A stretch of DNA of 64,000 bases, taken from positions 19,754 through 83,753 of the IMG/VR virus record IMGVR_UViG_3300028400_000004; one strand, written 5' to 3'. This DNA comes from a virus. The notes under the pieces were generated by a model. It had not been told where the DNA came from. It worked only from the letters and a program-made list of their open reading frames with translations, and made no database searches. Position numbers and translations under genes: made by a program. Of the stretch, positions 5,149-37,236 are shown in pieces (within the stretch, counting starts at the first letter, position 1; each line of letters starts with the position of its first letter).

Positions 5149-8100
5149 GTGACTATTTCAGTAGGTGACATTACCTATACTGTAAATGTAGATATTAGTG
5201 GTGTCTTAAAGGCACAAAAAGCAATAAAGGATTTTGAAAAAAGTCTAAAGTCCTTAAAGCAATTATCAAACAATATTAATATAAAAATAAATTTATCTGG
5301 ATATGGGCAGGCAGCAAAAAACCTGAGAGAGCTTAGTAAGCTAGCTAAAGATAAAACTATAAATATAAAAGTAAACAATGCTGATATAAAAAACGTAAAT
5401 GATAACTTAAAAAAGGTACGACAAAAATCAAAAACAAGTCTTAATATAAAAGTAAATAATGCTGCAAAAGTAAAAAAAGATTTAAGAGAAATAGATAGAT
5501 TATTAGCCAATATAAAACAAAACAAAAATATACAAATAATAGCAGCAACTGATGTTGTAAGTCGCGGTAAATCAAGTGGTAATAGTAAGACAGCCGCTAG
5601 GGACAGTAGTGAAATAAGGAAATTACGACAAGAAGAAACAATACAACGATTACTTTTACAAAATAGAAAATTATTACAATCAGCTAGACAGTTTTCTGGG
5701 TTAGCATCTCAAAGAATAAAGGAACCTCTATTAGAAGCGAGAAAGGAATTATTATCTCTTAATAGGGCATTTAGGTCTGGAAAATTAGATTATGCTGACT
5801 ATGTAGAAAGTGTAGGCAATGTAAGATTAGAACTTAAAAAAGCATCAGATCAGCTTACCAATTACAAACTAAATGTAAGGGAAACAGGTAGGCTTATGAA
5901 ACAAATGGAATTAATGCAAACCAGATATTCATCCGCTTTAGAAAAAATAAAAACTGCTGGAATTTCAGATTATAAATCAAATTTTGAAGAAAAGTTTATA
6001 TCAGCGCAACAGATTTTACGATCAAAAACCACACCTATTTCTCAAAAAACAAAAGCCGTAGCGGAACTAGATAGAGAGCTACAAAAAGTAATAAGAGACC
6101 AACAACGATTTACACAGGAAGTTAAACGAGTTAAAGGTCTAGCTGGACTATTTGGAAAACTATCAGATGCTATTAAGAGTGTAGGTGCAGCTTACGCAGC
6201 CTTCTTAATATTCAGTGGTATAGAAAAATTAATAAAAACTACTGTAACATTAGCCGATGAAACTAAAGGGCTTAGAGGACAACTAAAATTATTAGTAAAA
6301 AATCAAAAAGAATTAGATAAAACTTGGAATGACTTAATAAAAGTAGCCATACAAACCAGGACAGATTTAGCACCTACAGTAAAATTATATACAAAGGTAG
6401 CGGCTGCATTATTAAACTTAGGATATAGCAGCGAAGTAGCATTAAAAACAGTAAAAGCTATAAACACATCACTTGTTCTTAGTGGATCAAGTGCACAAGA
6501 AGCTGCATCAACAGTTATACAGCTGTCTCAGGCTTTCTCAAAAGGCAAACTAGATGGTGAAGAACTAAGATCAGTATTAGAAAATAATCAAGTCTATGCA
6601 CTAGCATTGGCTAAAGCCCTAAAAGTTGCAGGCGATAATACCGCCGTTACCACTAGAAACGTGCTAATGGCAAGCCGTGCAGGGAAAATAACACTCGATG
6701 TTATGGTTAAAGCTGGCCAAGCTATAAATAAAGAATTGGGGGATTCTTTAAACAATATTCCAATACGACTAGGACAAGCTGTCTCTATTCTGAAAACCCG
6801 GTTCATGGAAGTTATTTCTGCGATACAGTCAGCGGTAGATTATACTGCAATGTTATCTAAAGTTGTTTTAGGTTTAGCAAATAATATAAAAATAGTTACA
6901 GTAACCATTGTTAGCTTAATAGGCGCTTTAGGAAGTATGGGAACTGGAGCACTAATAAGTAAAGTATTTAAGTATCTTAGTAAGAATATGTTTGTGTCTT
7001 CAGCCAAAGGAATCATGAAGATAGTAAAATCATTTAAGACACTAAGAGGCGCTTTTGGTTGGATAGGATTGGCTTTAACAGGAGTTAGCGCAGCTATAGC
7101 TGTATATAAAAACGATTTAATAAGTATAAAAGGAGAAACTTATACTGTAGGGGAAGTACTACAGGCAGTTTGGCTAGCAATAAAAGATGTAATAAGTAAA
7201 GTAGTAGATAGGGTAAAAACAAAGCTAAAAAATTACATAGAATTTTTCAAGGCATATAAAAAGCTAACAGTGGAAATATTTAGGGTTATAAAGAAAAATC
7301 TAATTGATTTTTATAATTCTGTAAGTAAAACATTAAATAAATTAAGTGGTCCATTTGTTGCTTTTGCTAAAGTAATAAAACATTCACTTATTACTGGCCT
7401 GGCTGCTATTAAAACATTTAGGGAGGCTTTGGGGAAGGCATGGGAAGAGAAATCACTATCTGCTGGTATTGAGTATTTTAAGAAGAATATAAATAAAAAT
7501 ATTAAGGAGGCACAAGATCAAACATTTATTACAAACCTTTTAGAAGCATTTTTGCCAGACAATGCCGCAAAACAGGTTGATGAAAAAGTAATAAAACCTA
7601 TAGGAAATGCAATTGATTTTATTAAGGATAAAACAGAAAATGTTAGAAAAATGCTTGAAAAAGTTGGTTGGCTATTTTCCCCACAAGGATTTAAGGAAAG
7701 TTTAGAACTGGCCAATAAGTACTTTGATGAATTTGCATATAAATATCTAAAGAAATCAAAACAACTATCAGAACGTCAAGCAGGCTTTGGCGCGCTCCGT
7801 TTTGGTGGGGAAATAGTACCAAATAATGTATTAGATGATATTGATAGATTTAACTCTGCTATGGATAAATATGTTGCAATTAGTATGAATATAACAAAGC
7901 TACAAAAAGCATTAAGTACGGATATTGGTGTTAAATTTGTTGCTTTTGGAAATGAAGGTCTAATGAATAATTATTTGTCTGCTTTACAAAAGGCAGCTGA
8001 CTATACCAGAGCATTATCCAATGAGACACTAAAATTCTATAACTTCTATATAGGAAAACCACTGGGTTTTCAAGCAAAAACAACTGAAGAATTTATTGCA

Positions 8101-9342
8101 AAACTAGCAGAACAAATAGTAAAACAAAAACAATTAAATACACAAACAAAAGCTACAATTTCTATAATCAATAAGTTGAACAGTAGCTATTATGATCTAA
8201 ATACCGCTTTAGAAGAAATAACTGCTTATAAGAAGAATAATCCATTTGATTCTGAATTTGTTAAGGAATTAAAAAATCTTAATGTAGAACTTAATTCTAT
8301 GGAATTTAATTTAGAACTTATAAATGCCGTACAGGAAAAAATGGGCAGAAGAAAGTTTGCTAATTTGGATGAGTTCAAAAAATATTTACTAAACGTTCAA
8401 TCAATGACTAAGTATGCTAAGGATTATGCTGAAGCACTAAGACTAATGAATGAGACAAATCGTTATGACAGTGCCTTCAATAATAAACGAGATTTAGAAT
8501 TATTCTACAAAAATTCATACATAGCGATTAAAAATATAATAAAAACTAAGGAAGAACAACAACGAGCGCTAAACCAGCTGTATGAATTTTACAGGCAACA
8601 GTATAAAATAATTACAGGATATACAATTTTAAGGACTGAATCGGACACTACTTATAGAGGTATAATTGATAACTCCAAAAAAGCAAATAGATCAATTGGC
8701 GCATCAGCAAAGCAAATGTTAAATGGGATTTCTGATGGGCTTGTTAAATTTTATAATGGACTTATTAATCTAAGAAAACATGCTTTGAGAATAAAAACGG
8801 CATTGTTAGAAGTGTCTGATGCCTTTAAGTATAATGCGAAAAATATAATGAAAGACTTAGCCAGTCTTATCGACAACTGGGTGGATCAGATGTCTGATAG
8901 ATTGGCAGAATTTGTAGCCAAAGGAAAGGCTGACTTTAGATCATTATTGCAAGATATGAACAGACAATTAACATCATTAATACTAAGGCAGGCTATTGTA
9001 CAACCATTTATGGAAGGTATAAAATCATTAGTGATAAATACCTCGGCAGCCAATGCAGTACCTACTGTAGATGCTAACCAAATAGGAATAGGACAATCAG
9101 TAGATTTATCACAACCTGCCGGCGTTGTTAGTGCAAGATCAAGAACAAAAACCGCAAGCCCGGTTACTGTTAATGTGATTAACAAGACAAGCCAAGAAGT
9201 TACTGCAAATGCTACTGTAGAATATAATGACGCCGGAATGAGTATAAATGTTATAGTAGAAGCTGCTGTAGCGGAAATGGCTGCTAATGGCAAGCTAGAC
9301 AGAATAATGGCACAATATGGCGCTAGACGTAGAGGTGTTTAA
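5149..9342 (+). CDS. Tape measure protein
   Basis: 1397 aa, helical; QLSQAFSKGKLDGEELRSVLEN tape-measure motif; C-terminal GKADFRSL. Confidence 0.95.
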   Translation: MTISVGDITYTVNVDISGVLKAQKAIKDFEKSLKSLKQLSNNINIKINLSGYGQAAKNLRELSKLAKDKTINIKVNNADIKNVNDNLKKVRQKSKTSLNIKVNNAAKVKKDLREIDRLLANIKQNKNIQIIAATDVVSRGKSSGNSKTAARDSSEIRKLRQEETIQRLLLQNRKLLQSARQFSGLASQRIKEPLLEARKELLSLNRAFRSGKLDYADYVESVGNVRLELKKASDQLTNYKLNVRETGRLMKQMELMQTRYSSALEKIKTAGISDYKSNFEEKFISAQQILRSKTTPISQKTKAVAELDRELQKVIRDQQRFTQEVKRVKGLAGLFGKLSDAIKSVGAAYAAFLIFSGIEKLIKTTVTLADETKGLRGQLKLLVKNQKELDKTWNDLIKVAIQTRTDLAPTVKLYTKVAAALLNLGYSSEVALKTVKAINTSLVLSGSSAQEAASTVIQLSQAFSKGKLDGEELRSVLENNQVYALALAKALKVAGDNTAVTTRNVLMASRAGKITLDVMVKAGQAINKELGDSLNNIPIRLGQAVSILKTRFMEVISAIQSAVDYTAMLSKVVLGLANNIKIVTVTIVSLIGALGSMGTGALISKVFKYLSKNMFVSSAKGIMKIVKSFKTLRGAFGWIGLALTGVSAAIAVYKNDLISIKGETYTVGEVLQAVWLAIKDVISKVVDRVKTKLKNYIEFFKAYKKLTVEIFRVIKKNLIDFYNSVSKTLNKLSGPFVAFAKVIKHSLITGLAAIKTFREALGKAWEEKSLSAGIEYFKKNINKNIKEAQDQTFITNLLEAFLPDNAAKQVDEKVIKPIGNAIDFIKDKTENVRKMLEKVGWLFSPQGFKESLELANKYFDEFAYKYLKKSKQLSERQAGFGALRFGGEIVPNNVLDDIDRFNSAMDKYVAISMNITKLQKALSTDIGVKFVAFGNEGLMNNYLSALQKAADYTRALSNETLKFYNFYIGKPLGFQAKTTEEFIAKLAEQIVKQKQLNTQTKATISIINKLNSSYYDLNTALEEITAYKKNNPFDSEFVKELKNLNVELNSMEFNLELINAVQEKMGRRKFANLDEFKKYLLNVQSMTKYAKDYAEALRLMNETNRYDSAFNNKRDLELFYKNSYIAIKNIIKTKEEQQRALNQLYEFYRQQYKIITGYTILRTESDTTYRGIIDNSKKANRSIGASAKQMLNGISDGLVKFYNGLINLRKHALRIKTALLEVSDAFKYNAKNIMKDLASLIDNWVDQMSDRLAEFVAKGKADFRSLLQDMNRQLTSLILRQAIVQPFMEGIKSLVINTSAANAVPTVDANQIGIGQSVDLSQPAGVVSARSRTKTASPVTVNVINKTSQEVTANATVEYNDAGMSINVIVEAAVAEMAANGKLDRIMAQYGARRRGV

Positions 9343-19584: not shown

Positions 19585-20187
19585 TCACAAACATAGTAAC
19601 TCATAATAACTCAATATATCTTTATAAATATTTTTAATTAAATCATTACTTATGCTTTTCAAAGTTCTATTACAAAAGCCTATGGTACTATCCACAGGAT
19701 AACCGCACATTTCCACATTTTCTATGAAATAAGAAACATATTGACCTTTATTATCAATAAACAAATGCTCATAATTTCTAATTACATAAAAATCATCAGA
19801 TAATAAATCAATTGTATTGATTAATGTTGTTTTTGTAAAACTTACCTTTAATAACAAATTATATAACGATAAATAATTATCCTTTATATATGAATCAAAA
19901 TTACCGTTATCTACTATTTCAAATAATCTAATAAACTTATTAGTATCTTTATTAGTAAATTTTTTGAACTCTGCAATACACTTGTAATTTCCAACTTTAT
20001 TATACCAATAAATTAAACTTATTAAGTGATGCTTTATCTCATCATCGCTAATAAAAGGATTTTGTACTATAAAATCATGTAGTAATTGTATATTCTTAAC
20101 AGAAAAATTTTCTTTTGCTAAACTATCTAACTCCAGTTCTACTTTTAAGAACGTGTCTGAAAAAAGTATTCCTTCTTCATATAGCAT
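19585..20187 (-). CDS. Hypothetical protein
   Basis: 200-aa ORF in operon. Confidence 0.6.
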   Translation of the reverse strand: MLYEEGILFSDTFLKVELELDSLAKENFSVKNIQLLHDFIVQNPFISDDEIKHHLISLIYWYNKVGNYKCIAEFKKFTNKDTNKFIRLFEIVDNGNFDSYIKDNYLSLYNLLLKVSFTKTTLINTIDLLSDDFYVIRNYEHLFIDNKGQYVSYFIENVEMCGYPVDSTIGFCNRTLKSISNDLIKNIYKDILSYYELLCL

Positions 20188-28032: not shown

Positions 28033-28272
28033 TTATTTATTAGAAACTATAAGTACACCGACAGACCCAGTTGATGGGTCTTCACAAGTTAAATTTACTT
28101 GTACTTGTCTGCAAGCCTCTGGATCATATACATCGTTACTAGCAAGACAATACTCTCTTAAATTAGCAATTTCATCACCATCTAAACAAACCATAACTTG
28201 AATCCCTTTATCTCCGTAGGCACATCCTACTAATAGCACAAATAAAAACACTAAAATAATTTTATTTATCAT
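28033..28272 (-). CDS. Putative lipoprotein
   Basis: Signal peptide with LVGC lipobox. Confidence 0.55.
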   Translation of the reverse strand: MINKIILVFLFVLLVGCAYGDKGIQVMVCLDGDEIANLREYCLASNDVYDPEACRQVQVNLTCEDPSTGSVGVLIVSNK

Positions 28273-28282
28273 TACAATACCC

Positions 28283-28477
28283 TCATAAAATACTATTTAA
28301 GTAGTCTATAAATTCTACTGAAAACTCATTCTCAACCAAATCCATTGCTACTTTTGCAATCTGTTCTAATTTTTCATTCTCAAAATCTGATTTAATTAAT
28401 ACTTTATTAATAAGATAAAAAAGTTCTGTAGAATTTAATGATAATAAATAATCTTCAATTTCTGTATATTTATTCAT
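28283..28477 (-). CDS. Hypothetical protein
   Basis: First ORF of the leftward unit; GGTG SD. Confidence 0.55.
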   Translation of the reverse strand: MNKYTEIEDYLLSLNSTELFYLINKVLIKSDFENEKLEQIAKVAMDLVENEFSVEFIDYLNSIL

Positions 28478-28584
28478 ATAACCACACCTAATATAAAACT
28501 CAAATTTTAGTTAATAAAGAAAACTTATCATATATGTCAAGACAATTCAAGAAAGGAGAAGTTGATACTGATGCTTGTAAATGA

Positions 28585-28605
28585 AAATGAGAATCATTCT
28601 CATTT
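28585..28605. promoter_or_regulatory. Fur-box-like perfect palindrome
   Basis: AAATGAGAAT-C-ATTCTCATTT; resembles the AATGATAATNATTATCATT Fur consensus. Confidence 0.65.
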
Positions 28606-28703
28606 GGCGGCATAAAAATAAACACCAAGCCACTTTTCAATTACTACTATACTTGCAAAATGCCAATGCTTATTTATTAAGCAAGGGCAATCTTGCCTTT
28701 AAT

Positions 28704-29286
28704 CCTGCAAGGAGACCACCACCTCTGGTATCTAAAAATTAAATATATAAATATAAACGTTAGATTCGTCCTACTTCGTAGGACTCATCTTGTAACAAAA
28801 TATAAATATAAAAATTACCTACAAGGAGAATCTACCTACTTAATTACTTTTAATTATTTAATATATTGTAACGCTAGATTCGTATCACTTCGTGATACTC
28901 ATCTTTTAGCTAAAACAAATTATTATAATTTAATACAAGGAGAACTTAACCACTATTTTCTTATTTATTTCTTATTTAATTAGTATTGTTATCCTCGTAT
29001 CACTTCGTGATACTCGTCTAGTAACTTTACTATAAAATAAAATTTAATTTTTTCCTACAAGGAGATTCTATCCTCTATTAATTTTCTTACTTTGGTTTTA
29101 ATACCTAGTATTGTTAGATTCGTCCTACTTCGTAGGACTCATCTTGTAACTATTACTAATTTATTAAAATTAAAATAATTTATTTTCCTATAAGGAGATA
29201 CATACACTTAGAAATTTTAAATTAAATTTTATTATTTTATATAGAATTGTTATCCTCGCACTACTTCGTAGTGCTCGTCTAGTAAC
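28704..29286. repeat. Tandem array of 5 units (114-136 bp): AAGGAGA box plus 38-bp covarying hairpin
   Basis: Hairpins at 28759, 28873, 28988, 29113 and 29249; AAGGAGA at 28709, 28823, 28937, 29059 and 29192. Confidence 0.9.
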
Positions 29287-29380
29287 TTTTCTAATAAAAT
29301 CAATAACTTATGGTTTTGAGTTTACTCAAACTCAAGACACACTTATCCTTAAATCCCTTTAACTCTGGCCACGTAGCCAT

Positions 29381-29550
29381 TTTATTTCTTTATTTAACTT
29401 CTTTATTCTTTTAATTTCTTTATTTTCTTATTTTTTCTTAATTTCTTTATTTAATCCTTTATTTTTAATTCTTTTAATTCTATCTTTTTAGATACTTCTT
29501 ATTTAATTCTTTATATTTGATTCTTTTAATTTCTTTATTTTATTTTTTTT
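29381..29550. repeat. T-rich low-complexity tract of degenerate TTCTT(T)ATT/TTCTTTTAAT units
   Basis: Almost no G on the + strand over about 170 bp. Confidence 0.7.
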
Positions 29551-29559
29551 ATCATATGT

Positions 29560-30110
29560 CACTCCGTTCTTGCGGATTCTTTCATCCTCGTCGGGCTGTT
29601 CGCCCGACTCGTTTCAAGCATCCGCATGTTCGAACTTACATTCATATTTCAGTTTGTTTAACTTTATGGCTGGCGCGTGGGAAAAAGGCACAATTTGGCC
29701 TAGCAGACCAAAGTTGTACCTGCCAAAAATTTGGCTTTTTTCTTGAAAAAATTAATGAAAAGGCACCTTACCAATGGTTACGTTTTTACACGCGGGGACG
29801 GGAGGCCCGTGTCGCCCCTCTTACACATACTTGGGTATCGCTACGCCTCGGCAGACACATACGACCTGGTAAGTAGCCGTATGGTTCACACCCCTTAATT
29901 CTATGGGGTCTCTTGTAGATTCTTTGCCCTCCGGGCGGCCCGCGGCGATCTACTTACCGCTAGCCTTGTTGCCTCACCCAACCTGCGCAGCATTACCTGC
30001 GCCAGGAATCTAGGCATCTGGATATTCACAAGACCCGTCCAGACCGCGGTATATCAAATTGTAGGGAGAGCACCCGTAACGAAACTCAGCTAGTGCTTGG
30101 TTTCATTACG
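29560..30110 (-). ncRNA. Putative long GC-rich structured RNA (3' boundary uncertain)
   Basis: Starts just after the promoter at 30117-30145; successive hairpins; no credible ORF. Confidence 0.5.
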
Positions 30111-30116
30111 CTAGCA

Positions 30117-30145
30117 ACAATAGCACATGCAAATACGCTTGTCAA
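30117..30145 (-). promoter_or_regulatory. Sigma70-type promoter
   Basis: TTGACA-17 bp-TATTGT with extended TGn. Confidence 0.65.
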
Positions 30146-30321
30146 CTATGTTGCAAAATCAGCATCAACACGTTTATTGAAAAATGCGTGCTGAGAACCG
30201 TTACACATATATTATCGGCATGACCCCTCAATAGTTTAACTATCCTAGTAGCTTATCTGCTTGGTTGTTTTGTCTCCTATAACGTGCTAACATAATTGAT
30301 AAAAATTAATGGTATATAGGT

Positions 30322-31041
30322 ATGAAAAAGGACTTTTACAAAAAATATTTTGGATTTATAAATTCAATAATAGAAAAGACGGTTTGTGATCCTTATAATC
30401 CAGAACGTAGAGATGATTATCTACAGGAATGTTATTTGGCATTGCTTGAGGCTAAAGAGAAGTATGATGACAAAAAATCGTCATTCTCTAATTATGCCTA
30501 CATCGTTGTTAGAGGACGATTGCTTGACTACATAAGAAAGCAAACTTCTTTATCTAGAGAAGATTACAAGATAGTAAATACGATTCAAAATTTGATTAGT
30601 GAGAAAGGTATAGTACGCTATGAGGATATAAGTAAGAATTTTAACGTAAGTAAAGAAAGGTTTTATAGATTGTTGTCTTTAAGTAAAAATAGTAATTACA
30701 AAGATTTATTATATTTTAATTATGATTATTATAGTAATGATGATTTTGAAGTGGTTGTAGAAGATAAGAAAGAATTAAAAATGCAGTTATATATAAAACC
30801 GACACAAGTACATAGGATTGATAATAATAAATTTAGAAAAAAATTAGATATTTATTTAGATAGGTTGACTGCTAAGGAGCGTACAGTTATAAAACTGAAA
30901 TATTATCACGATAAAAGTATTAGTGAGATAGCTTCAATATTTAATGTTTCGGTAGCTGCGGTTAGTCATATGCATAAAAAGGCAATTAAAAAATTAAAGT
31001 CATATATTGGTGATAACGTAAATGAATACCTACATGATTAA
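30322..31041 (+). CDS. RNA polymerase sigma factor (sigma70 family, FliA/SigF-like)
   Basis: Region 2 DYLQECYLALLEA..KYD..FSNYA..RGRLLDYIRK; region 4 LTAKERTVI..SISEIA..VS..AVS..KAIKKLK. Confidence 0.9.
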   Translation: MKKDFYKKYFGFINSIIEKTVCDPYNPERRDDYLQECYLALLEAKEKYDDKKSSFSNYAYIVVRGRLLDYIRKQTSLSREDYKIVNTIQNLISEKGIVRYEDISKNFNVSKERFYRLLSLSKNSNYKDLLYFNYDYYSNDDFEVVVEDKKELKMQLYIKPTQVHRIDNNKFRKKLDIYLDRLTAKERTVIKLKYYHDKSISEIASIFNVSVAAVSHMHKKAIKKLKSYIGDNVNEYLHD

Positions 31042-34843: not shown

Positions 34844-35169
34844 AAAAAGAAGAGCTTGGTAAAAGATTTAATAATGGAAAGCTAAAGATGTCATTATTAT
34901 TAGAGTGTGATGATGCATTAGATGGGGCTGTTAGATGTTTGATGCATGGAGAAAAAAAGTACGGCAGAAATAATTGGAAGAAAGGATTAAAATACACAGA
35001 AATTATTGATAGTTTACTTAGACACTTAAACCAATTTATGCGAGGGCAAGATGTTGATTTAGAAAGCAATTCAGAGTATAATCACGTTGACGCTATTGTA
35101 GTTAATGCGTTGTTTTTGTCTTACATGTTTTATAAACGAAAAGATTTAGATGACAGGGGTGCAAAATAA
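34840..35169 (+). CDS. dATP/dGTP diphosphohydrolase-domain protein (DUF5664-like)
   Basis: GKLKMSLL..GEKKYGRNNWKKG..SLLRHL..DLES..HV pattern. Confidence 0.75.
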   Translation: MKKEELGKRFNNGKLKMSLLLECDDALDGAVRCLMHGEKKYGRNNWKKGLKYTEIIDSLLRHLNQFMRGQDVDLESNSEYNHVDAIVVNALFLSYMFYKRKDLDDRGAK

Positions 35170-35534
35170 TGGCATTGATTTTATATGCTAGAAAAGGTGA
35201 TGTTTTTTACATTGATGATGTAAAGCTAAAAGTTGAGAAGTTAATTTTTGAACCTACTAAGACAAAGAATCCAATTGTAAAAAAGAGTTTTCCATATTCT
35301 ATGGTTTTGTCTGTTTTTACAGATAAAGGCATGGAAAAATTTTTGATTACTAAGGAATGTTTTACTAGTGTACCTGGTTATCCAGACTGGTTACTTGCAG
35401 TAGGTTCTCGACACAAAGAAGATAGTAGAAGTTTGTCATTAATGTTTGAAGTTCCTAAAGAAAATAAGATTTATCGAAAGAAGATTTACGATAAGATTAA
35501 GAAGCAAGAGGTGGAAAATCAAAATGGATGCTAA
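35169..35534 (+). CDS. CsrA-like protein with internal expansion
   Basis: N-terminus LILYARKGDVFYIDDVKLKV and C-terminus LMFEVPKENKIYRKKIYDKI resemble the two ends of CsrA. Confidence 0.55.
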   Translation: MALILYARKGDVFYIDDVKLKVEKLIFEPTKTKNPIVKKSFPYSMVLSVFTDKGMEKFLITKECFTSVPGYPDWLLAVGSRHKEDSRSLSLMFEVPKENKIYRKKIYDKIKKQEVENQNGC

Positions 35535-35896: not shown

Positions 35897-36742
35897 ATGA
35901 GCAAAGAATCCGTATTAAAAGGATATTCGGAGCCTTATAAAATCCATAATGATGGATTTGTGCGTGTTGTTGATGTTATGGGTGATGACGATGCGGTAGT
36001 TCAGATGGCCAGAACAAGCTATGGAAAAGGAACAAAAACGGTAAATGAGGATGCTAATTTAATTAGATATTTAATGCGTCATCGGCATACTTCTCCGTTT
36101 GAAGGTGCTGAAATCAAACTTCATATCCGTTGTCCTATTTTTGTTGCTAGGCAATGGTTGCGCCATAGAACTGCTAGTGTTAATGAATTATCAGCAAGAT
36201 ACTCAGAAATGGAAGATTCTTTTTACGTTCCTGAATTGGATTATGTTGCTGCGCAAAGTTCCGAAAACAAACAGGTAAGTGGTAATCCAGTAAATGTAGA
36301 AGATGCAAGTATTTACAGGGAAAAGTTAACTGAGATACAAAAAATAACCTATAATATTTATAAGCAAGCGTTAGAGGTAGGCATTTCCAGAGAACGTGCT
36401 CGTGAACTATTACCAGTAGGTATTTATACTGAGTTTTATTGGAAAATTGATTTGCATAATCTTTTACATTTTCTTGAATTGCGTATGCATCCACACGCGC
36501 AGAGAGAAATTAGGGATTATGCTAATGTTATTGGCAATGAGATTGTAGCAGAATGGGTACCTATTACTTGGAAGGCTTTTTTAGATTATAGATATAATGC
36601 AAAAACTTTTTCTAAAAAGGCATTTGATACATTAAAAGAATTGCTAGGAACTGGTGGTGTGGAATCCTTCTTAGAAGGTCTGAAGGACAAAGGGCTTACT
36701 AAACGAGAAATAAAAGAATACGAAAATATGTTTTTACAATGA
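35897..36742 (+). CDS. thyX: Flavin-dependent thymidylate synthase
   Basis: HTSPFE, RQWLRHRTASVNELSARY and HAQREIR motifs. Confidence 0.97.
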   Translation: MSKESVLKGYSEPYKIHNDGFVRVVDVMGDDDAVVQMARTSYGKGTKTVNEDANLIRYLMRHRHTSPFEGAEIKLHIRCPIFVARQWLRHRTASVNELSARYSEMEDSFYVPELDYVAAQSSENKQVSGNPVNVEDASIYREKLTEIQKITYNIYKQALEVGISRERARELLPVGIYTEFYWKIDLHNLLHFLELRMHPHAQREIRDYANVIGNEIVAEWVPITWKAFLDYRYNAKTFSKKAFDTLKELLGTGGVESFLEGLKDKGLTKREIKEYENMFLQ

Positions 36743-37236
36743 AAAATAAAAGAATTTCTACGAGAACATACAAATTTCTCATAAAAGATGAGAATAATGT
36801 CTATGCAAAATTAGAGAATTTATTTAGGGTAATTGTTTTGCTAAGGAGAATTTTGATTGAGGATCGGAGACGTGTCCAGGCGAGTTCCGATAGAATTATG
36901 GGTACAAATGAGCAGGTTTCTAGGTTTATTGATATTAAAGACGAGACACCATTAAATTTAATACCATATGATACTGCATTGGCAATTATAAAAGATATTT
37001 CTGCTTATCATAATAAGAATAAACATGTTCCTAATATTGGTGAATTTTATAACATAAAAGTGCCATTTTATTGTTCAGTATCATATAGATATGATGAGAT
37101 GAATGTGCCTGGCATTGGAGTCATCAAAATTAAAAGAGATAAGCCTATTCCTAGAGATAGGAGTGTCATTGTTTCTAATATTTATAAAAAAGGCAAATCA
37201 TGGTACGCAGACTTAGTGACGAAAAAGAAGGAATAG
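36739..37236 (+). CDS. TnpB/IS605-OrfB-derived protein, N-terminal (WED/REC) half only
   Basis: RTYKF, helical REC-like segment, VPGIGVIKIKRDKPIP..NIYKKGKSWYADLV; stops before RuvC. Confidence 0.65.
   Translation: MKNKRISTRTYKFLIKDENNVYAKLENLFRVIVLLRRILIEDRRRVQASSDRIMGTNEQVSRFIDIKDETPLNLIPYDTALAIIKDISAYHNKNKHVPNIGEFYNIKVPFYCSVSYRYDEMNVPGIGVIKIKRDKPIPRDRSVIVSNIYKKGKSWYADLVTKKKE

Follow-up and report, generated by a model that had tools for sequence, protein, structure and literature searches.

Among described noncoding elements, those to be set beside the phage locus analysed here include tandem sibling sRNAs with CU-rich anti-Shine-Dalgarno seeds (Neisseria NmsR/NgncR_162-163, the streptococcal csRNAs, Listeria LhrC1-4), other tandem layouts (PrrF1/2, OmrA/B, AbcR1/2), the CsrB/RsmZ sponges, and the origins of T4 and ColE1, which rely on promoter-driven R-loops. 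Tandem sibling sRNAs, as also sRNAs with anti-Shine-Dalgarno seeds, are established kinds, and the array described below resembles the former in having diverged units of ~100-130 nt placed head to tail in an intergenic gap (PMC4211561; PMC5362039). As in those families, a conserved hairpin goes with an exposed CU-rich motif complementary to AAGGAG, and the sequence in between varies freely. Another likeness, in the hairpin itself, is with the c(GAA)g mini-hairpins of DNA, which are unusually stable, bind SSB poorly and have been described in the G4 origin, RSF1010 ssiA and N4 promoters, in agreement with the background given in the first-pass annotation of this DNA for phage single-stranded-DNA origins and N4 (PMC13037366). 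With the G4 origin, RSF1010 ssiA/ssiB and the N4 early promoters, all built on c(GNA)g mini-hairpins, the array has in common a GAA loop, its closure by a C-G pair and a short stem (PMC13037366), as well as a phage or plasmid setting of replication or early transcription in which function would need an unwound strand. Those signals are single or come in twos or threes, whereas the array is five-fold, with spacers of 76-98 nt and a companion box.

The window, meaning the whole stretch of 64,000 nucleotides that was analysed, covers positions 19,754 to 83,753 of the 83,753-b IMG/VR record IMGVR_UViG_3300028400_000004, an uncultured hydrothermal-vent phage whose record is estimated to be 79% complete. 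The array lies within a 1.85-kb gap free of ORFs, with divergent gene blocks on either side and a phage sigma-factor gene adjoining, and falls within the region's most AT-rich 800 bp. Among the genes of the phage is a T4-like replication set, made up of a DnaB-like helicase, a Toprim primase, a clamp with its loader, a family A polymerase, a gp32-like SSB, RNase H, a UvsX-like recombinase and SbcCD. Its genes for a tape measure and tail fibres point to a long-tailed morphology, in contrast to N4. No initiator-like gene or known iteron was found adjoining the array; the downstream ORFs (64, 79 and 175 aa) gave no Pfam, PHROG or PADLOC match, and six flanking or candidate ORFs matched no Cas or other defence model in PADLOC. 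In window coordinates, the features of the gap are as follows.

28580-28606, minus strand: AU-rich hairpin, U-rich on its 3' side, putative 3' terminus of the noncoding unit
28704-28715, minus strand: box 0, CCTGCAAGGAGA (plus) and UCUCCUUGCAGG (minus)
28759-28796, minus strand: hairpin element 1, type A flanks, stem GUCCUAC/GUAGGAC, 64.1 bits
28818-28829, minus strand: box 1, CCTACAAGGAGA (plus) and UCUCCUUGUAGG (minus)
28873-28910, minus strand: hairpin element 2, type A, stem GUAUCAC/GUGAUAC, 61.0 bits
28932-28943, minus strand: box 2, AATACAAGGAGA (plus) and UCUCCUUGUAUU (minus)
28988-29025, minus strand: hairpin element 3, type B
29054-29065, minus strand: box 3, CCTACAAGGAGA (plus) and UCUCCUUGUAGG (minus)
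29113-29150, minus strand: hairpin element 4, type A
29187-29198, minus strand: box 4, CCTATAAGGAGA (plus) and UCUCCUUAUAGG (minus)
29249-29286, minus strand: hairpin element 5, type B, stem GCACUAC/GUAGUGC
29380-29556, minus strand: A-rich tract (~170 nt), a loose 9-14-nt repeat
29556-30110, minus strand: GC-rich, ORF-free structured block, GC 0.46-0.56
29584-29612, minus strand: partial look-alike hairpin, GUCGGGC-GAACA-GCCCGAC, stem at 29590-29608
30117-30145, minus strand: sigma-70-type promoter, TTGACA-17-TATTGT, with TG upstream of the second hexamer

The five 38-nt elements lie where the first-pass annotation had placed them, at start-to-start spacings of 114, 115, 125 and 136 bp. Each is laid out, from the outside inwards, as a 4-bp outer stem, a 3-nt bulge, a middle segment of three positions, a sheared tandem G.A, a 7-bp stem and a GAA loop. 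The 7-bp stem is perfect in 5/5 copies and occurs in the three sequences reported earlier, all five share a 3-nt loop (plus-strand TTC, minus-strand GAA), and loop and closing pairs are invariant across the array. Two flank types occur, A (GAUGA..GAAUC) and B (GACGA..GAGGA), elements 2 and 3 having a common stem and differing flanks; since elements 1 and 4 are identical, the array holds four distinct sequences, with three stem variants. Covariation extends, as had been noted, to the outer stem, which is GTTA/TAAC but GCTA/TAGC in copy 2. Of 14 pairs counted across the array, 6 show two-sided changes and none a one-sided change. Standard pairs account for 92.9% of cells, and the observed covariation score was reached in 0/500 shuffles and abolished when the partner was slid by 1-3 columns. 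The elements are confined to the array: a 7-bp-hairpin scan and a covariance model, the latter among the checks proposed at the outset, found only these five copies in the whole 83,753-b record (60-64 bits; next 14 bits). The hairpin belongs to no known RNA family in Rfam 15, in which no family reached its gathering score in 28300-30400 and a permissive search gave chance-level matches only (18-25 bits, E 0.07-7).

The two strands of the element are not equivalent. The minus strand reads GA-stem-GAA-stem-GA in every copy, as claimed, and only there do the flanks form tandem G.A (in a Y-GA-R context), with G.A, A.G and C-G in the middle segment of type B in place of the G-C, A-U and U-A of type A. 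Read in the plus sense, the flanks are pyrimidine mismatches (U.C/C.U), and every copy folds worse, the minus sense being favoured by 2.1-2.6 kcal/mol in each. As DNA, the hairpins have modest predicted energies (-4.7 to -6.9 kcal/mol at 37 C) that differ little between strands; global folds of the 641-nt array are uninformative, pairing between repeated units being dominant. The spacings correspond to 10.9, 11.0, 11.9 and 13.0 turns, within 0.15 turn of 11, 11, 12 and 13 at 10.5 bp/turn, so that successive units grow by about one turn. A sixth variant, also proposed in the first-pass annotation (29584-29612), proved to be a real hairpin but not a full sixth copy, kinship with the array not being established (11.5 bits, E 3.7): its likeness to the array is limited to the inner flanks of type B (ACGAG..CGAGGAU), its loop is of 5 nt (GAACA), the outer stem is missing, and it is enclosed by a UGCGGAU/AUCCGCA helix of the GC-rich block.

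A second conserved part, absent from the first-pass annotation, is a 12-nt box (CCTACAAGGAGA on the plus strand) that occurs once per unit and whose core, AAGGAGA (UCUCCUU on the minus strand), is invariant. UCUCCUU matches the anti-Shine-Dalgarno core of 16S rRNA; in the plus sense, the box is an ordinary strong Shine-Dalgarno or GGA motif. Hairpin and box are 43-50 nt apart in unstructured, A/U-rich sequence, and the boxes follow one another at 114, 114, 122 and 133, out of helical phase. AAGGAG is rare in this genome, with 25 plus-strand sites of which 6 fall within 650 bp at the array, and a genome scan found the extended box only in the array. The spacers are unstructured (z near 0), hold no minus-strand ORF of at least 30 aa and, on the plus strand, are almost free of G outside the boxes.

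Upstream of the array in the minus sense, the promoter at 30145-30117 has 10/12 consensus matches, is the best in the region and is directed towards the array, with no terminator-like site found on the minus strand between the two. It is followed by the GC-rich block (~550 nt), which in the minus sense has a predicted fold of -201 kcal/mol (z -4.9), against -176 kcal/mol (z -2.7) for the plus sense, contains the hairpin with array-like GA..GA inner flanks, and is in portions almost identical in three other vent runs. Then comes the A-rich tract, which in the minus sense is 79% purine, 68% A and 1% C. Beyond the array, the AU-rich hairpin at 28580-28606 may be a terminator, although the consensus scan raised no flag there; the plus strand has two terminator-like sites past the array, at 29563-29586 and 29722-29745.

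In a related phage population, known from another vent study, the hairpins are nearly unchanged and the spacers diverged. Its element 4 is identical in 38/38 bases, element 3 in 37/38 (the sole change falling in the 3-nt bulge) and element 5 in 37/38 (29279 C>T on the plus strand), and box 3 keeps 11/12 bases within an otherwise diverged spacer; the 87-nt spacer between hairpins 3 and 4 has taken 17 substitutions and 8 indel positions. That the hairpins are kept while the spacer has diverged shows selection, and together with the compensatory stem changes it bears out the earlier suggestion that the structure is under selection. Spacer changes hit the places where unit-specific -10 elements would lie, which fits one long transcript rather than five promoters. 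Hairpin spacings in the relative are ~117, 127 and 135, a looser helical phasing, and the similarity stops at 28578, at the foot of the 3' hairpin. A blastn search of the gap against 50,697 GenBank phages gave no match; a slightly stricter form of the hairpin pattern gave one chance match in IMG/VR, in a coding region and without a stem; a pattern covering all five copies gave none in JGI metagenomes or 185,579 GTDB species genomes; and a 22-mer from the GC-rich block gave none in IMG/VR. The DNA polymerase had no relative in IMG/VR, and the sigma factor, as a single sequence or two-sequence alignment, none in IMG/VR or the JGI metagenomes; in genomes its matches were confined to unrelated region-4 sequences. 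Protein databases yielded a single close relative for each of three products, those of the sigma-factor gene (51%), the polymerase gene (82%) and a 121-aa ORF (83%). Among the sequencing runs listed as containing the stretch there was no RNA run.

The first-pass annotation had offered an origin or protein-loading platform on an unwound strand, or a processed RNA array, either of which would suit a single strand of minus sense beyond the promoter. The array is, tentatively, best read as part of an early noncoding RNA of ~1.5 kb with five modules of hairpin and CU box. It would form the 3' half of a minus-strand unit read by host RNA polymerase in the order promoter (30145-30117), ~550-nt GC-rich fold, 170-nt A-rich linker, five modules and 3' hairpin (28580-28606). 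The hairpins would be shape-specific handles for protein binding, nuclease protection or cleavage, which could release sibling RNAs of ~115-135 nt, and the CU boxes exposed heads that would pair with AAGGAG ribosome-binding sites early in infection or, alternatively, compete for whatever binds AAGGAG sites. Transcription of the region, its 5' and 3' ends, any processing and the target of the box are inferred. Several features speak for such an RNA: the invariant flanks give tandem G.A only in the minus sense, the best promoter match of the gap points into the array on that strand, and the GC-rich block folds 25 kcal/mol better in that sense. The unstructured, ORF-free spacers each carry an invariant 7-mer, AAGGAG is rare in the genome and the extended box limited to the array, hairpins 3-5 and box 3 are kept in the relative within diverged surroundings, and similarity to the relative ends at the foot of the 3' hairpin.

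Several observations sit less well with an early noncoding RNA. Near-whole-turn spacing of the hairpins is not something it predicts, and the array lies at a GC-skew minimum between divergent blocks in a phage with a T4-like replisome. The C-GAA-G loop is not specially stable as RNA, and exceptionally so as DNA (PMC13037366). No phage gene has extended complementarity to the box, and on the plus strand the box is a common kind of motif. The comparison with sibling sRNAs also has its limits: in a minus-strand scan no unit of the array has its own conserved promoter or intrinsic terminator, and no U-runs follow the hairpins, which makes the array unlike classical sibling sRNA genes. Its units seem instead to hang on one transcript behind the predicted 550-nt fold, its hairpin has non-Watson-Crick features and covarying stems undescribed for those families, and it is phage-borne.

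Possible too, if rather unlikely, is a replication origin of the R-loop type, in which the displaced minus-sense strand forms five c(GAA)g mini-hairpins. The transcript from 30145-30117 would stay hybridised to the DNA over both the polypurine tract and the AT-rich array, and the fold at its 5' end would have the role of ColE1 RNA II; the hairpins of the displaced strand, with sheared G.A, would resist SSB, keep the bubble open and mark the loading place of the phage helicase and primase, and the RNA, cut back by the RNase H of the phage, would supply a primer. The likeness to T4 oriF/oriG and ColE1 RNA II lies in a predicted strong promoter leading into noncoding DNA and in an AT-rich, easily melted zone, and for RNA II also in a folded RNA of ~550 nt (a predicted fold in the present case), to which the phage adds RNase H and other T4-like replication genes as a point of likeness to R-loop origins. 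In keeping with such an origin, the 79% purine RNA of the 170-nt tract upstream of the array favours stable hybrids, the G.A-pairing strand is the non-template strand of the promoter, the hairpins are spaced near whole helical turns, and the C-GAA-G loop is far stabler as DNA than as RNA (PMC13037366). The setting between divergent blocks, in the most AT-rich 800 bp and at the cumulative GC-skew minimum (which a check suggested in the first-pass annotation located at the array), would also suit an origin; but the skew switch coincides with the switch in gene orientation, so that the skew has no independent evidential weight for one.

Against an R-loop origin, the closing context is A-C-GAA-G-T, as opposed to the G-C-GAA-G-C of the extra-stable mini-hairpin (G-C..G-C in the G4, RSF1010 and N4 signals), and the predicted DNA hairpins, at -4.7 to -6.9 kcal/mol with little strand difference, are of modest stability. 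It gives no role to the AAGGAGA box, where an rU/C:dA/G hybrid would be of the weakest kind, helical phasing is only loosely kept in the relative, and no initiator gene or known iteron adjoins. T4 origins are compact (a promoter and a ~50-bp unwinding element), unlike the array, and neither they nor ColE1 have a covarying hairpin array or an AAGGAGA box. As for N4-type promoters, all five copies have the hairpin shape expected of them (on the template strand, a purine-rich loop of 3 nt over a stem of 5-7 bp; here GAA and 7 bp on the minus strand). The first-pass allusion to such promoters finds no support: no T7/N4-like RNA polymerase domain was found in the 79%-complete record, PF00940 having no match in its 83.7 kb in a search run without validation by control genomes, and, unlike in N4 and RSF1010, neither an N4-type virion RNA polymerase nor a RepB'-type primase was found, the primase of the phage being of the Toprim type. 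The fuller statement that either an early ~1.5-kb phage RNA is cut at its five hairpins into sibling RNAs, each exposing a copy of the anti-Shine-Dalgarno core, which together mask strong ribosome-binding sites and reprogramme translation during infection, or an R-loop-displaced strand serves as an SSB-proof array for loading the replisome, is decidedly doubtful.

It is improbable that the array acts in the plus sense, as a decoy RNA transcribed from left to right whose five exposed (U)ACAAGGAGA sites titrate a GGA-binding regulator (host CsrA or a CsrA-like protein of the phage) or 30S subunits, the hairpins being spacers or stabilisers. The consensus for CsrA from SELEX is RUACARGGAUGU, which the plus-strand AAGGAGA core, preceded by UAC, UGC or UAU, resembles. 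Unstructured plus-strand spacers almost without G outside the boxes and the two terminator-like sites downstream would suit a decoy, and, as with CsrB/RsmZ, multiple A(N)GGA motifs lie in a noncoding region of a phage with a possible CsrA-like gene: the 121-aa ORF at 35169-35534 gave weak CsrA matches in three independent models and CsrA-related leads in a protein atlas. These matches, however, are below every curated cut-off and cover only ~25 C-terminal residues, the structural models of the ORF are poor (AlphaFold pLDDT 48.5 and 58.7), and it had no PDB sequence match and nothing at E<=0.001 in Foldseek against PDB. Moreover, a decoy lacks a convincing upstream plus-strand promoter (the best by eye, TTGCAA-16-TATTAA at 28653-28680, was not flagged in the scan) and would put the motif and the best-folding form of the hairpins on opposite strands, each copy folding worse in the plus sense with its U.C/C.U flanks. 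The five boxes also lie in single-stranded spacers rather than loops and 114-133 nt apart, far wider than in known CsrA sponges.

More improbable again is a double-stranded architecture in which phased 38-bp inverted repeats, perhaps as cruciforms, and boxes are binding sites on which a nucleoprotein complex would assemble, to control the divergent promoters or for some other DNA transaction. Spacings of 10.9, 11.0, 11.9 and 13.0 turns and palindromic elements between divergent operons, beside a sigma-factor gene, would favour it; yet half-sites of three different sequences are more than a sequence-specific dimer would accept, compensation on both arms shows selection for intrastrand pairing and not for a fixed duplex sequence, the boxes are out of phase and the phasing of the hairpins is looser in the relative. 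Phage-borne mimics of CRISPR repeats are a described kind, and the elements are 38 nt long, start with GUU, end with AAC and combine a terminal stem with an internal hairpin like many repeats, with stem variants that could address different host repeats; but that they mimic host repeats in the manner of an RNA anti-CRISPR, or otherwise decoy a host RNA-binding defence protein, is very improbable, their pattern having no true match in 185,579 species genomes, JGI metagenomes or IMG/VR, the repeats being non-identical with 76-98-nt "spacers" that carry a common conserved box, and the flanking and candidate ORFs scanned giving no Cas or defence match.

Other identities were rejected. A CRISPR array proper does not fit three stem variants, two flank types and intervals of 76-98 nt against the ~26-72 nt expected, nor does a type III toxin-antitoxin locus (ToxIN/CptIN/AbiEi-like) fit partly conserved units of 114-136 nt as against abutting repeats of ~34-50 nt, or downstream ORFs that lack Pfam, PHROG or PADLOC matches where a terminator and a ToxN/AbiQ-type endoribonuclease gene would be expected. 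A kink-turn of the L7Ae-binding type, with tandem sheared G.A/A.G directly after a 3-nt bulge, would suit only the two type-B copies, the three of type A having G-C and A-U there, and in copy 5 of the relative an A replaces the key G (29279 C>T, plus strand); partial resemblances to a hammerhead-like core and a boxB-like loop are not kept across copies and have no Rfam match. In an iteron-type origin the repeat cores would not vary while pairing stays, and an initiator-like gene does not adjoin. Unit-specific promoters with the box as -35 on either strand are contradicted by unconserved -10 regions and by spacing changed by indels in the relative. Micro-ORFs were likewise discarded: a TTG..TAG frame crosses the hairpin in three copies, yet copy 1 lacks a start, the box is 43-50 nt off, compensatory stem changes alter the peptide, and no start codon follows any AAGGAGA box at Shine-Dalgarno distance.

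Phage noncoding elements that are under structural selection and belong to no family are rare entry points to unknown biology. The present array unites fixed shape, flanks and loop with drifting stems, a box identical to the anti-Shine-Dalgarno core (on the other strand, to a strong site for ribosome or CsrA binding) and a large, folded, GC-rich RNA candidate upstream, in the place where one would look for a T4-like replisome to start. Should the array act as RNA, it would represent a modular, virus-made regulator of translation of a new kind; should it act as DNA, it would represent a new origin architecture and a natural use of mini-hairpins in a double-stranded DNA phage.

The window spans bases 19754-83753 of a linear IMG/VR virus record (83,753 bases; estimated completeness 79%), and a hydrothermal-vent metagenome is the sole run containing nearly all of it. 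The phage is long-tailed by gene content (tape measure, J-like tail fibre) and encodes a terminase, four tRNAs, one group I intron, enzymes of nucleotide metabolism (ribonucleotide reductase, thymidylate synthase), and a T4-like replication set composed of a DnaB-like helicase, an SNF2 helicase, a Toprim primase, clamp, clamp loader, family A polymerase, gp32-like SSB, RNase H, a UvsX-like recombinase, and SbcCD. No GenBank phage has a polymerase more than 30% identical to its own. With tRNAs of 45-55% GC, it is unlikely to infect a hyperthermophile. The hairpin array lies in a gap between gene blocks of opposite orientation, the left one encoding, besides the 79-aa protein listed below, proteins of 64 aa and 175 aa and a beta-helix protein. 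The relevant features are:

28033-28272, minus strand: 79-aa lipoprotein-like ORF with a signal peptide, an LVGC lipobox-like motif, and a faint Rz-like spanin match, from which the left block may be a lysis or late block
28478-30321: 1.85-kb gap without a credible ORF
Starts at 28759, 28873, 28988, 29113, and 29249: five 38-nt hairpin elements
29556-30110, minus strand: GC-rich block of about 550 nt
30145-30117, minus strand: near-consensus promoter match
30322, plus strand: sigma-70-family factor, first gene of the right, plus-strand block
35169-35534, plus strand: 121-aa ORF (P0003)
36739-37236, plus strand: 165-aa ORF without a match in Pfam, PHROGs, or PADLOC

The regular, covarying array described in the first-pass annotation is borne out in coordinates, spacings (114, 115, 125, and 136 bp from start to start), and stems. 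In all five elements a 7-bp stem without mismatches closes a 3-nt loop. Read 5' to 3' on the minus strand, GUUA opens the outer stem and is followed by a 3-nt bulge, the first of two 3-position middle segments, and GA; then come the two arms of the 7-bp stem around the GAA loop, a second GA, the other middle segment, and UAAC, which completes the outer stem. No variation occurs in the loop, in the two pairs that close it, or in the GA..GA flanks. Copy 4 repeats copy 1 exactly, which leaves four distinct sequences, built from three stems and two flank types (A in elements 1, 2, and 4; B in 3 and 5); copies 2 and 3 have a common stem within different flanks, which points to exchange between units. 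Over 14 pairs, two-sided changes occur in six and one-sided changes in none, with standard pairs in 92.9% of cells; this covariation was reached by 0 of 500 shuffles and vanished when partner columns were slid. At 10.5 bp per turn the spacings equal 10.9, 11.0, 11.9, and 13.0 turns, successive units growing by about one helical turn. A scan of the whole phage record found no further hairpins of this kind, nor did a covariance model from the five elements give any other match above 14 bits there. The supposed sixth copy (stem 29590-29608) is weaker than first proposed: it has only the type-B inner flanks in common, with a GAACA loop and an E of 3.7, and is a look-alike within the neighbouring GC-rich fold rather than an established sixth member.

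Each unit also contains a 12-nt box (plus strand CCTACAAGGAGA, minus strand UCUCCUUGUAGG) with an invariant AAGGAGA core. Read on the plus strand, the box starts 55-62 nt upstream of its own hairpin, and a variable gap of 21-36 nt separates the hairpin from the next box. Outside the array the phage genome has no copy of the extended box, and AAGGAG, used by few real genes, is uncommon in it (25 plus-strand sites, six of them within 650 bp at the array). The spacers around the boxes are no more structured than expected by chance, and the boxes are out of helical phase.

Database searches reached no homologous array. Among contigs of four other vent runs aligned to the gap, one of 1,592 nt, from a different study, has a syntenic array in which at least four hairpins follow one another at intervals of about 117, 127, and 135. 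Its hairpin 4 is identical at 38/38 positions and hairpins 3 and 5 at 37/38 each (the changes being in the bulge and, G to A on the minus strand, in the middle segment, respectively), and box 3 at 11/12, whereas the 87-nt spacer between hairpins 3 and 4 has 17 substitutions and 8 indel positions. Judged by this comparison, the hairpin and box are under purifying selection and the remainder is not; the earlier proposal that structure is selected thus gains from both the compensatory stem changes and the relative. Similarity ends at 28578, where an AU-rich hairpin (28580-28606) has its base. An extra AAAGGAGAAG within 28551-28615 (plus strand), 10 nt upstream of an ATG whose frame has only 14 codons, lies just left of that limit and is therefore probably not conserved. 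Parts of the GC-rich block recur with few changes on short contigs of three other vent metagenome runs.

Several lines from sequence and predicted folding make the minus strand the more likely one to function in single-stranded form. Only there do the invariant flanks form tandem G.A pairs in Y-GA-R context; the type-B middle segment reads G.A, A.G, C-G, against three Watson-Crick pairs in type A, and the same positions are pyrimidine mismatches on the plus strand. The minus-sense fold is better by 2.1-2.6 kcal/mol in every copy. Of the promoter matches in the gap, the best (TTGACA-17-TATTGT, with TG ahead of the second hexamer) is directed at the array, and no terminator-like site was found between them on the minus strand. 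The predicted minus-sense fold of the intervening 555-nt GC-rich block, which is ORF-free and without an Rfam family match, reaches -201 kcal/mol (z -4.9), against -176 kcal/mol (z -2.7) for the plus-sense fold; the block is a candidate for a large structured RNA of a new kind. A further ORF-poor region of the phage lies outside the window, at about 5600-8600 of the full record (L003, G000:C1), and has GC-rich islands (0.57-0.68 GC) crowded with perfect 7-bp GC hairpins; it has no sequence similarity to the array gap and matched nothing in Rfam at E<=0.01 except by one chance match.

Our preferred, still tentative, explanation is that the array forms part of an early noncoding transcript of about 1.5 kb, whose last third would present five modules, each combining a shape-specific hairpin with an exposed UCUCCUU head. 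Among known kinds, tandem sibling sRNAs with an anti-Shine-Dalgarno seed come closest (PMC4211561; PMC5362039); the array differs from them in that its modules lack their own promoters and terminators, lie on one long putative RNA behind a large folded domain, and have a hairpin with conserved non-Watson-Crick features. The RNA model leaves the helical spacing unexplained.

The main alternative, somewhat less likely, makes the origin suggested at first pass specific: the same transcript would hybridise across the 79%-purine tract upstream and the AT-rich array, and the displaced minus-sense DNA would fold into c(GAA)g mini-hairpins. The annotation rightly called this motif unusually stable in DNA; its stability there far exceeds that in RNA, it binds SSB poorly, and it is known from the G4 origin, RSF1010 ssiA, and N4 promoters (PMC13037366). 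The phage encodes a T4-like replisome and RNase H, and the array does sit at the GC-skew minimum, although gene orientation changes at the same place. The spacings near 11, 11, 12, and 13 helical turns would fit such an R-loop origin, but phasing is looser in the relative (about 117, 127, and 135), the loop is closed in an A-C..G-T context, the DNA hairpins are predicted to be modestly stable, and the conserved box is given no role.

It is improbable that the array yields a plus-sense decoy RNA for GGA or SD binding. In favour of this reading, the box resembles CsrA sites, and the C-terminus of P0003 (about residues 86-115) bears a faint similarity to the CsrA models of Pfam, TIGR00202, and NF002469, in each case far under cut-off (Pfam, 22.7 bits versus 27). 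CsrA-related leads also came from the protein atlas, and the N-terminus of P0003 was likened by eye to CsrA strand 1-2, about 45 aa being inserted between it and the C-terminal part; P0003 has one relative (83%) among 1.8 billion representative proteins. Neither structure prediction (a poor model) nor Foldseek, however, confirmed a CsrA fold. Phased duplex binding sites are less credible still, as they conflict with the covariation, and CRISPR-repeat mimicry is very remote, no matching repeat having been found in IMG/VR, JGI metagenomes, or GTDB genomes.

The array may act either as RNA or as unwound DNA, and a transcription unit containing it is plausible; the element itself is real, selected, structured, and unclassified, and comes with a companion motif.
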